64,000 nucleotides of DNA from an uncultured Clostridia bacterium (GTDB lineage Bacteria > Bacillota > Clostridia > Christensenellales > UBA1242), in contig CALWTH010000054.1 in NCBI GenBank assembly GCA_944384405.1, forward strand, positions 2,277 through 66,276, read 5' to 3'. A program made the position numbers and the translations under genes. Below the pieces are notes generated by a model. The model was not told the DNA's origin, made no database searches, and was given only the letters and a program-made list of their open reading frames with translations. Within the stretch, counting starts at the first letter, position 1; each line of letters starts with the position of its first letter. Shown one piece after another: positions 19,234 to 20,442 of this stretch.

Positions 19234-20442
19234 TTATTTAATTAAGTTACTATTCATTAAGTCTTTAAGTTCATTCACAGAAAGAACTAAATTTTCAAAA
19301 TGTTCTTCTTCAAGAAGAAGATTTTTAGCTTTATAGCTATTTGCAAAACATCTATCATCGTATTTACAATTCAAGAAACTAGGTACATATTGTGTTTTAA
19401 TATTAGTTTCTTCGTTTTTATAAAGTGGATTAGATTTTATCTTGTTTCCTTTATCTATAAAACGATAAATTCTAAAACCTGAAGCCTTTATGTAAAAATT
19501 TAAATTTAGTAAAAACTGTATATATTTTTTATTAACAGCTCGAGCTCGAGAAACCTTATGATTAAAGTTCTTATCCGAAATATCTCTAAACTTTTTAATA
19601 AGTCTATTACAAAGATAATTATATATTCCAGTAAGGATAAGAGGCTTTAAAAAAGGTTTTTGCTCAAGCATTGTGCGGTTTAATGCTACCACACGCTTAA
19701 GGTCTATAGCAATATTTCCAGAATCCTGGTCAGTATTTAACCAAAAGCCGTCAAAGTGGTGGCGAATAAATCTTCCAGCTTCAGAGATATTGAGATTTTT
19801 ATTTTTTCCGCGTTTTCCGTCAGCTGGATTTGACATACCTATTTCGTCCTCAAACCAAACACTGAGGTATGGTGATTTTTTCTTCTGTTCAATATGACCT
19901 TGAGTTAGTTTGAGGGTTTTACGTCCTTTAAAGTCAATTAAAGGAACTGAAGAGATAAGGCAGGGCTGAAGGTAAGGGTGTTTCGCCCAGAACTCAAATG
20001 CCTCTTTAACTTCTTTCCAGTGGCGTTTTTTCTCTATGTCATTACCATTCTCTATCTGTCTAGCGAAAGGTGAGAGGAGAGCATATTCTATTTGAAGTTT
20101 TCTCCAGTTATATTCAGCCAGGTTTTTAGCATTGAATATATTACTTGATGTTTTACCTGTTCCTGGTTCACCGTCGGTCACGCTTACGCGTCTGCATTGA
20201 TAGAACTCTGCTTGTGTTTTGGCATCATGCTTGACTCGTGCTTTAGCATAAAGCCAAGCAATGAATCTGGGAGTGTTGTACGCAAAGCCACAAAGTGGCA
20301 CTGCGTACAAGCTTACAAGCCAGATTTTTTCAATTGTAGGTATTCCGATTATGAGTACTAGAACTACTAATAGGAGAGAGTAAAGTATGAAGTTAAAAAT
20401 GTACTGATACTCGGCTAGGAGTTTGATGTGTTTGTTTTTCAT
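19234..20442 (-). CDS. Membrane-anchored P-loop NTPase, Zot/pI-like (filamentous-phage assembly ATPase family) with two N-terminal TM helices
   Basis: TM1 YIFNFILYSLLLVVLVLIIGIPTI and TM2 IWLVSLYAVPLCGFAY. Walker A DGEPGTGKTSS and Walker B VWFEDEIG. FIRHHFDGFWLNTDQD resembles the Zot motif MHRHHGWDICLTT recalled from CTXphi Zot. Confidence 0.5.
   Translation of the reverse strand: MKNKHIKLLAEYQYIFNFILYSLLLVVLVLIIGIPTIEKIWLVSLYAVPLCGFAYNTPRFIAWLYAKARVKHDAKTQAEFYQCRRVSVTDGEPGTGKTSSNIFNAKNLAEYNWRKLQIEYALLSPFARQIENGNDIEKKRHWKEVKEAFEFWAKHPYLQPCLISSVPLIDFKGRKTLKLTQGHIEQKKKSPYLSVWFEDEIGMSNPADGKRGKNKNLNISEAGRFIRHHFDGFWLNTDQDSGNIAIDLKRVVALNRTMLEQKPFLKPLILTGIYNYLCNRLIKKFRDISDKNFNHKVSRARAVNKKYIQFLLNLNFYIKASGFRIYRFIDKGNKIKSNPLYKNEETNIKTQYVPSFLNCKYDDRCFANSYKAKNLLLEEEHFENLVLSVNELKDLMNSNLIK

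Follow-up and report, generated by a model that had tools for sequence, protein, structure and literature searches.

The assembly ATPase of the filamentous phage M13, pI, carries its transmembrane (TM) segment after the ATPase domain and, beyond that segment, a periplasmic domain acting together with the pIV secretin. A different layout has been described: about 30% of 5,964 inovirus species have a morphogenesis gene, termed "atypical", whose product bears an N-terminal transmembrane domain (TMD), an arrangement seen in four isolate species, and the criteria for genuine pI-like clusters admit one TMD or two, N- or C-terminal (Roux et al. 2019, PMC6813254). Firmicutes-targeted gut inoviruses have a stand-alone Zot that lacks the extra C-terminal domain of M13-like phages, and Clade-1 genomes with such a Zot are predicted to infect Clostridiales (Sugimoto et al. 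2021, PMC8530359). Here we describe a 402-aa membrane-anchored ATPase encoded at 19234..20442, on the minus strand, of a 64,000-nucleotide stretch of DNA (the window) from an uncultured Clostridia bacterium, where it belongs to a mobile element of ~13.6 kb. Sequence comparisons place it in the Zot/pI branch of the FtsK-HerA superfamily, in the "atypical" N-anchored subclass of the plectrovirus ORF2 type, and we consider it likely that the protein acts as the cytoplasmic-face assembly/export motor of an inovirus-like element.

The open reading frame (ORF) is intact and starts with ATG, and it encodes a P-loop ATPase in which all catalytic residues are present, and the enzyme is predicted to be active. 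The motifs, all on the minus strand, comprise the Walker A motif or P-loop GEPGTGKT at residues 91-98 (20149..20172); the Walker B motif VWFEDE at residues 195-200 (19843..19860); an R-H...T-x-Q motif, RFIRHHFDGFWLNTDQD, at residues 224-240 (19723..19773), with IDLKR at residues 246-250; and a C-terminal YDDRC motif at residues 361-365 (19348..19362). An earlier sequence-only reading of this locus had described two N-terminal TM helices, both Walker motifs, a Zot/pI-like stretch ending in IDLKR and a basic C-terminus, and each of these features was confirmed on the sequence.

Word-based homologue searches reached the close clade only, one of them returning 17 relatives without names or Pfam domains. 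An exhaustive profile search covering 1.84 billion cluster representatives (clusters at 50% identity) defined a family of 398 representatives at E<=1e-3, 145 of them at E<=1e-30; nearly all of the matches were full-length, the N-terminal membrane part included. In an alignment of 73 sampled members, reaching down to ~20% identity, K97 of Walker A and E200 of Walker B are invariant, and conservation reaches at least 90% at G91, G96, P160, D199, Q239, P267, Y361, R364 and Y370, so that it is concentrated on catalytic positions. R227 and H228 of the R-H...T-x-Q motif are invariant in a closer alignment of 15 sequences.

This family provides the link to Zot/pI proteins. The Zot model PF05707 was matched directly by 13 of the 73 members (best E 5e-9). 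Hits to other ATPase families do not recur among them, FtsK-, TraD- and TcpA-type models being matched by none. The Zot gene product of the gut inovirus bajarodino virus 71, which itself passes the PF05707 cut-off (26 bits vs 20.3), was aligned by hhalign with a first version of the family alignment at 97.3% probability (E 1.7e-11). With the 73-sequence profile, five gut-inovirus Zots were matched at 99.2% (E 8.8e-20) over 210 columns spanning residues 82-375; the aligned features are Walker A, a P-C-L-x-S-N-x-P strand, Walker B, the R-H...Q motif, and YDDRC, which pairs with FD-x-YCYS in the inovirus proteins. ORF2 of the plectrovirus SpV1-R8A2B was matched at 93.5% (E 2.4e-7, 204 columns), YDDRC aligning here with KYD. 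The match to M13 pI was weaker (64%, E 6.5e-5) and confined to residues 193-258, from Walker B to Q; the RFIRHHFDGFWLNTDQD motif is the counterpart of the R-K...V-Q-D stretch of pI, and it also aligns with the gut-inovirus Zots and with SpV1 ORF2. The likeness to pI that the sequence-only reading had pointed out recurs exactly over the Walker B/R-K/Q stretch, and its proposal of Zot/pI homology is upheld. As negative controls, the motor of the host's own FtsK gave 5%, ORF3 of plasmavirus L2 gave 8%, and ORF8 of Propionibacterium phage B5, which had been suggested as a comparison, gave 4% and matched at the P-loop only. On these profile comparisons the 402-aa protein is placed as a very divergent Zot/pI relative, with a homology to inovirus and plectrovirus morphogenesis ATPases over residues 82-375 that is real but indirect, being established at the level of the family.

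The same comparisons bear on the proposal that the ATPase is a conjugation-like translocase of a minimal integrative element, in the manner of Streptomyces TraB or clostridial TcpA. Like the FtsK/SpoIIIE-type translocases (host FtsK, TraB, TcpA), the ATPase combines an N-terminal anchor with an FtsK-HerA P-loop motor, and the succession of N-terminal TM helices, ATPase and basic C-terminal region is that of TraB and TcpA. Zot and FtsK share a superfamily, and a weak alignment with FtsK extends from Walker B to Q; an integrase, a Rep, regulators, membrane proteins and a single ATPase are also roughly the inventory of an actinomycete integrative conjugative element. Against this stand the 5% for the host FtsK motor as compared with 99.2% for the inovirus Zots, and the model searches: FtsK_SpoIIIE (PF01580), TraG/VirD4 and other coupling-protein models were matched by 0 of the 73 members, and T4SS-DNA_transf, TraG-D_C and TrwB found no match in the ATPase or its 73 relatives. 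Among the element's proteins, models for relaxases, VirB4, coupling proteins and defense systems had no match, and a cell-wall hydrolase was not detected. TraB-type transfer has been described in mycelial actinomycetes and is not known in unicellular Clostridia. We regard a conjugative role as very unlikely.

The N-terminal membrane hairpin (residues 14-37 and 40-60; 20263..20403, minus strand) was delimited from hydropathy, charge counts and an AlphaFold model. Both segments are hydrophobic, with zero or one charged residue, and are separated by a two-residue loop; AlphaFold places helices at 13-31 and 40-75. The N-tail is basic and six K/R lie within the 30 residues past helix 2, so that by the positive-inside rule both ends, and hence the ATPase domain, are predicted to be cytoplasmic. 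This layout is conserved in the family: in 57 of the 73 members crude hydropathy marks one or more TM segments ahead of Walker A; it marks segments there alone in 54, and behind Walker A in three. With its anchor ahead of the P-loop and no TM helix after the ATPase domain, the 402-aa protein has the arrangement that defines the N-terminal-TMD subclass. It also agrees with the pI-like clusters of Roux et al. in its one or two TMDs, here two N-terminal helices, and in having no significant similarity to another ATPase type (Pfam, NCBIfam, PHROGs, PADLOC and PDB sequences, with FtsK as control). The sequence-only reading had suggested that, if the homology held, the order of anchor and ATPase made a domain-order variant of the family marker. 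A claim that this order is new is unsupported because the N-terminal-TMD layout is already described, by Roux et al. and in SpV1 ORF2 and the gut-inovirus Zots; the apparent inversion of topology is that of a known class of filamentous-phage assembly ATPases, and the protein belongs to a Pfam-invisible new subfamily of a known kind rather than to a new design.

SpV1-R8A2B (Plectroviridae, Vespertiliovirus; X51344) is an isolated phage of a single-membrane host. Like the window ATPase, its ORF2 has an N-terminal anchor, Walker A, an S-N-x-P strand, Walker B, R-H...Q and a C-terminal Y-D motif, and is without a C-terminal TM helix. Walker A lies at residue 82, as compared with 91 in the window protein, after a hydrophobic region of ~45 residues that appears as one segment by crude hydropathy and as two helices by eye. 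The differences are that ORF2 is shorter (337 aa), without insertions corresponding to residues ~108-157 and ~272-321, and that its genome is 8.3 kb, uses genetic code 4, has a wall-less Mollicutes host and shows another gene order around the ATPase. The best statistical match is to the Zots of small uncultivated gut inoviruses (bajarodino viruses 71, 16, 47 and 51, and Inovirus sp. MT135295), which also come from gut samples and share the anchor before the P-loop, PxLYSNIP, R/H...Q and FD-x-YCYS for YDDRC. They differ in being 269-308 aa long, with one N-terminal TM helix, Walker A at 33-38 and no insertions, and their circular genomes measure 4.7-8.5 kb (5.3 kb for bajarodino virus 71). A replication initiator is annotated in three of the four bajarodino records fetched; small ORFs are annotated too. 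The Zot of bajarodino virus 71 is the only one to pass the PF05707 cut-off; the other four tested fall below it. M13 pI belongs to the same superfamily and has the same spacing from Walker B to R-x...Q, and in M13 as in the window element the ATPase gene stands at the end of the structural gene block; on the other hand, the pI P-loop is at residue 8, and PF05707 gives it 180 bits, as compared with nothing for the window ATPase.

What is novel in the ATPase family is a pair of helical insertions, and the setting in the element is likewise new. Both insertions are gapped in the hhalign alignments with the gut-inovirus Zots and SpV1 ORF2. Insertion 1 (approximately residues 108-157; 19972..20121, minus strand) is modeled by AlphaFold as a long helical hairpin (helices 97-132 and 136-153) with a predicted local distance difference test (pLDDT) score around 90. 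Insertion 2 (approximately residues 272-321; 19480..19629, minus strand) is strongly basic, with model helices at 268-285, 293-301 and 305-320. Residues 271-402 hold 24 K/R as compared with 13 D/E, an excess that lies mostly within insertion 2 (11 vs 2). The C-terminal 130 aa are accordingly basic, as had been claimed, and they do not form a free-standing soluble tail: residues 322-375, which include YDDRC, align with the C-terminal part of the N-anchored inovirus Zots.

The element that carries the gene extends from 14677 to 28316. An exact direct repeat of 55 bp, identical to the 3' part of tRNA-Tyr, marks its two ends (14677-14731 and 28262-28316; the copies start 13,585 bp apart). Its content includes a tyrosine integrase (26944-28131, plus strand); a replication protein (17379-18242) assigned by library matches to Lin1244_N and to the PHROG replication-initiation/DnaD-like group; and a divergent Xre pair, an HNH protein, a helix-turn-helix protein, a DUF4417 protein and an HExxH protein. 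Related elements keep this gene order; their sites are tRNA-Tyr, tRNA-Ser or tRNA-Met, and their recombinase is of either the tyrosine or the serine type. One of them, CALWEY010000006.1 (L011; 13,023 bp), encodes an ATPase 30% identical to that of the window and has a 127-bp terminal direct overlap, which makes it a circular assembly, ~12.9 kb long, of a related element. The same metagenome-assembled genome (MAG), E02__bin162, also carries a close relative of the window's element, L007, at tRNA-Tyr, whose ATPase is 86% identical to the window's, so that two divergent members occur in one genome. The element is mobile and tRNA-integrating, has circular relatives and is patchily distributed among host genomes.

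The ATPases of related elements share 72-86% identity with that of the window, whereas for the four membrane proteins encoded upstream of it the identity is 24-44% or no counterpart is detectable; the ATPase is by far the most conserved gene of its mobile element. In inoviruses, the most conserved gene is that for pI (Roux et al., PMC6813254). This constraint, far stronger than that on the neighboring genes, is difficult to reconcile with the view that the gene, although intact, is left over from a decaying prophage and now lies idle, with no present function. That view could draw on in-frame stops in matches from related genomes and on a putative coat micro-ORF that has no canonical start codon. 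The ORF in the window, however, is intact and keeps all its catalytic residues, the 55-bp attachment repeats are exact, and the genes for the integrase, the regulators and replication are likewise undamaged, so that an idle remnant seems extremely improbable. The stops occur in two otherwise strong, full-length ATPase matches, one TAA in G075:C4:56477-57685 and one TAG plus one TAA in G118:C19:2660-3874, and suggest decaying copies in some relatives.

Five genes for membrane proteins stand in succession as an operon, which the ATPase gene closes. The four upstream of it (20439..25224, minus strand) encode proteins of 537, 410, 171 and 467 aa with one N-terminal TM anchor each, the 467-aa protein also containing Listeria-Bacteroides and DUF285/PARCEL repeats. 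The 410- and 171-aa genes overlap by 4 nt, as do the 467-aa and ATPase genes, where the ATPase start codon and the preceding stop codon (TGA) share the sequence ATGA; no Shine-Dalgarno sequence was visible on inspection of the sequence upstream of the ATPase start. A stop-to-stop scan of the sequence further revealed a possible 32-residue hydrophobic micro-ORF (IVKFIFWLILK...; 25245..25340, minus strand), with a strong ribosome-binding site, AAGGAGGTG, and ATT in place of a canonical start codon. In a more distant clade of elements a 30-aa single-TM ORF occupies the same position (L010 4615-4707, L011 12665-12757, L024 4439-4531), so that both clades have a TM micro-ORF of ~30 residues directly upstream of the first large membrane-protein gene. 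Single-TM ORFs of 68-74 aa are also present there in the distant clade, one with a basic C-terminal tail; a protein of this size with such a tail resembles an inovirus major coat protein. A tblastn search with the 68-aa and 30-aa candidates for a coat homologue across the clades gave no significant match.

These features can be assembled into a working model for an inovirus-like export motor. Penicillin-binding proteins are encoded in the host genome, so the host is probably walled. In such a walled monoderm, the hairpin would hold the ATPase domain at the cytoplasmic side of the only membrane, and a periplasmic secretin-docking domain would be unnecessary. An oligomer of the ATPase could then use ATP to drive element DNA out through the membrane, while membrane-inserted proteins of the element would be loaded onto the DNA during export; candidates for these are the four translationally linked N-anchored proteins and possibly the ~30-residue TM peptide. 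Basic insertion 2 is a candidate DNA-contact or membrane-contact arm. The role thus predicted from the sequence is an ATP-dependent one in virion assembly or extrusion.

Several observations weigh against this interpretation. PF05707 did not match the 402-aa protein at E<=1, nor did the protein have any match in Pfam, PHROGs, NCBIfam, PADLOC or PDB sequences. The sequence-only reading had proposed to decide between PF05707 and FtsK/TcpA profiles, and the outcome was divided, the protein having no direct PF05707 match and no better match to any other ATPase family. A scan of IMG/VR found no relative, and a tblastn search of a phage collection found a single marginal match, the Zot gene of bajarodino virus 71. 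Within the element, a canonical coat gene, of 30-90 aa with a single TM segment, was not found, the 32-residue micro-ORF being the only single-TM candidate of coat-protein size, and models for HUH rolling-circle Reps matched none of its proteins. Neither four large anchored proteins nor a size of 13.6 kb is typical of inoviruses. The structural comparison that had been suggested was also unsupportive: AlphaFold was run on the full-length protein and, with an alignment of 19 sequences, on residues 61-402; pLDDT was 73-74 in each case, with low confidence around the P-loop and Walker B, and Foldseek searches (BFVD once, PDB twice) returned only non-significant, generic P-loop/AAA+ matches, among which the Zot N-terminal domain 2r2a ranked 37th (E 0.19). 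Because the catalytic loops are weakly modeled and the Foldseek matches non-significant, structure neither supports nor contradicts Zot homology.

Some of these observations would fit another kind of virus. The ATPase could be the motor of a non-filamentous virus-like element with double-stranded DNA (dsDNA), theta replication and pleomorphic, membrane-derived or otherwise non-inoviral particles, the pI-like ATPase having been borrowed from, or being ancestral to, Tubulavirales. The DnaD-like replication protein in place of an HUH Rep, the lack of a clear major coat gene and the run of five membrane proteins point in this direction, and some N-TMD "inovirus-like" sequences may represent separate virus groups (Roux et al., PMC6813254). 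The integrating Acholeplasma plasmavirus L2 is similar to the window element in size (11,965 bp) and lifestyle, and its ORF3 shows a like order of features by eye. Yet all statistically supported relatives of the ATPase are in inovirus or plectrovirus genomes, inoviruses exchange replication modules freely (Roux et al., PMC6813254), and a probably walled host argues against simple budding. We judge a non-filamentous motor unlikely, and continue to favor an inovirus-like assembly ATPase.

L2 ORF3 (locus L034; L13696, 2278-3213; 312 aa) was considered in its own right. By eye it contains ALPGGGKS, LILDE and LLRHQG...LLSQ, with N-terminal hydrophobic helices and Walker A near residue 100, in the order seen in N-anchored Zot-like ATPases. 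It was rejected as evidence of homology, since hhalign gave 8% and 2% and no hidden Markov model matched anywhere in the L2 genome; a plasmavirus-inovirus link through this protein is a lead only.

Among 201 genomes of the host family, 38 had an ATPase match, about 20 of them strong and full-length. The matches are patchy, across 22 of the 58 genera (genomes 0.8-1.5 Mb), and only one of six other genomes from the same genus has one; a metagenome scan gave three loci. The subfamily, found in roughly one in ten of the sampled host-family genomes, is missed by current Pfam, PHROG and NCBIfam models, and a profile built from it could let pipelines recognize many cryptic elements of gut Clostridia that are now labeled hypothetical and lack relatives in IMG/VR. 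A pI-type motor beside non-rolling-circle replication and without an obvious coat invites the question what form of DNA, and what particle, such a motor can serve in walled, single-membrane hosts. One tentative answer, possible although rather unlikely in our estimate, is that the ATPase marks a separate lineage of temperate elements, 8-14 kb in size, in gut Clostridia with small genomes, distinct from classical inoviruses. With similar reserve, these elements might combine theta-type (DnaD-like or RepL-like) replication with no canonical coat and four fast-evolving N-anchored surface proteins. If so, dsDNA or unconventionally coated DNA may be exported by a pI-type motor, and the elements would form a virus group of their own that connects Tubulavirales with plasmavirus-like or capsid-less elements.

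Some further observations concern the surroundings of the gene and other Zot-like sequences. Promoter and terminator scans performed no better than on shuffled sequence. At 14883-16520, on the minus strand, lie the genes for the DUF4417 protein, the HExxH zincin-like protein and a small acidic protein. The three occur together in related elements L001, L008 and L012, and L022 and L023 have DUF4417 with the zincin; the trio looks like part of the core gene set of the element family and not like cargo. Beyond the strong matches, about 18 host-family genomes (e.g., G101, G108, G041, G140, G021 and G039) gave weaker ATPase matches, with E from 1e-6 to 1e-16. The ORFs concerned are roughly 180-410 aa long and most matches are confined to the Walker B to Q core, so that other Zot-like families seem common in small-genome gut Clostridia. 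A 2,891-bp contig in the window's own MAG (G000 contig C1; L030) encodes a second, more canonical Zot-like fragment at bases 1-639, open at the contig start and above the PF05707 cut-off (23 bits); at bases 2074-2889 there is an adjoining 3'-open ORF with an HUH-like motif (CIHFHLLING). This contig is probably a separate small inovirus genome that was binned with the MAG.

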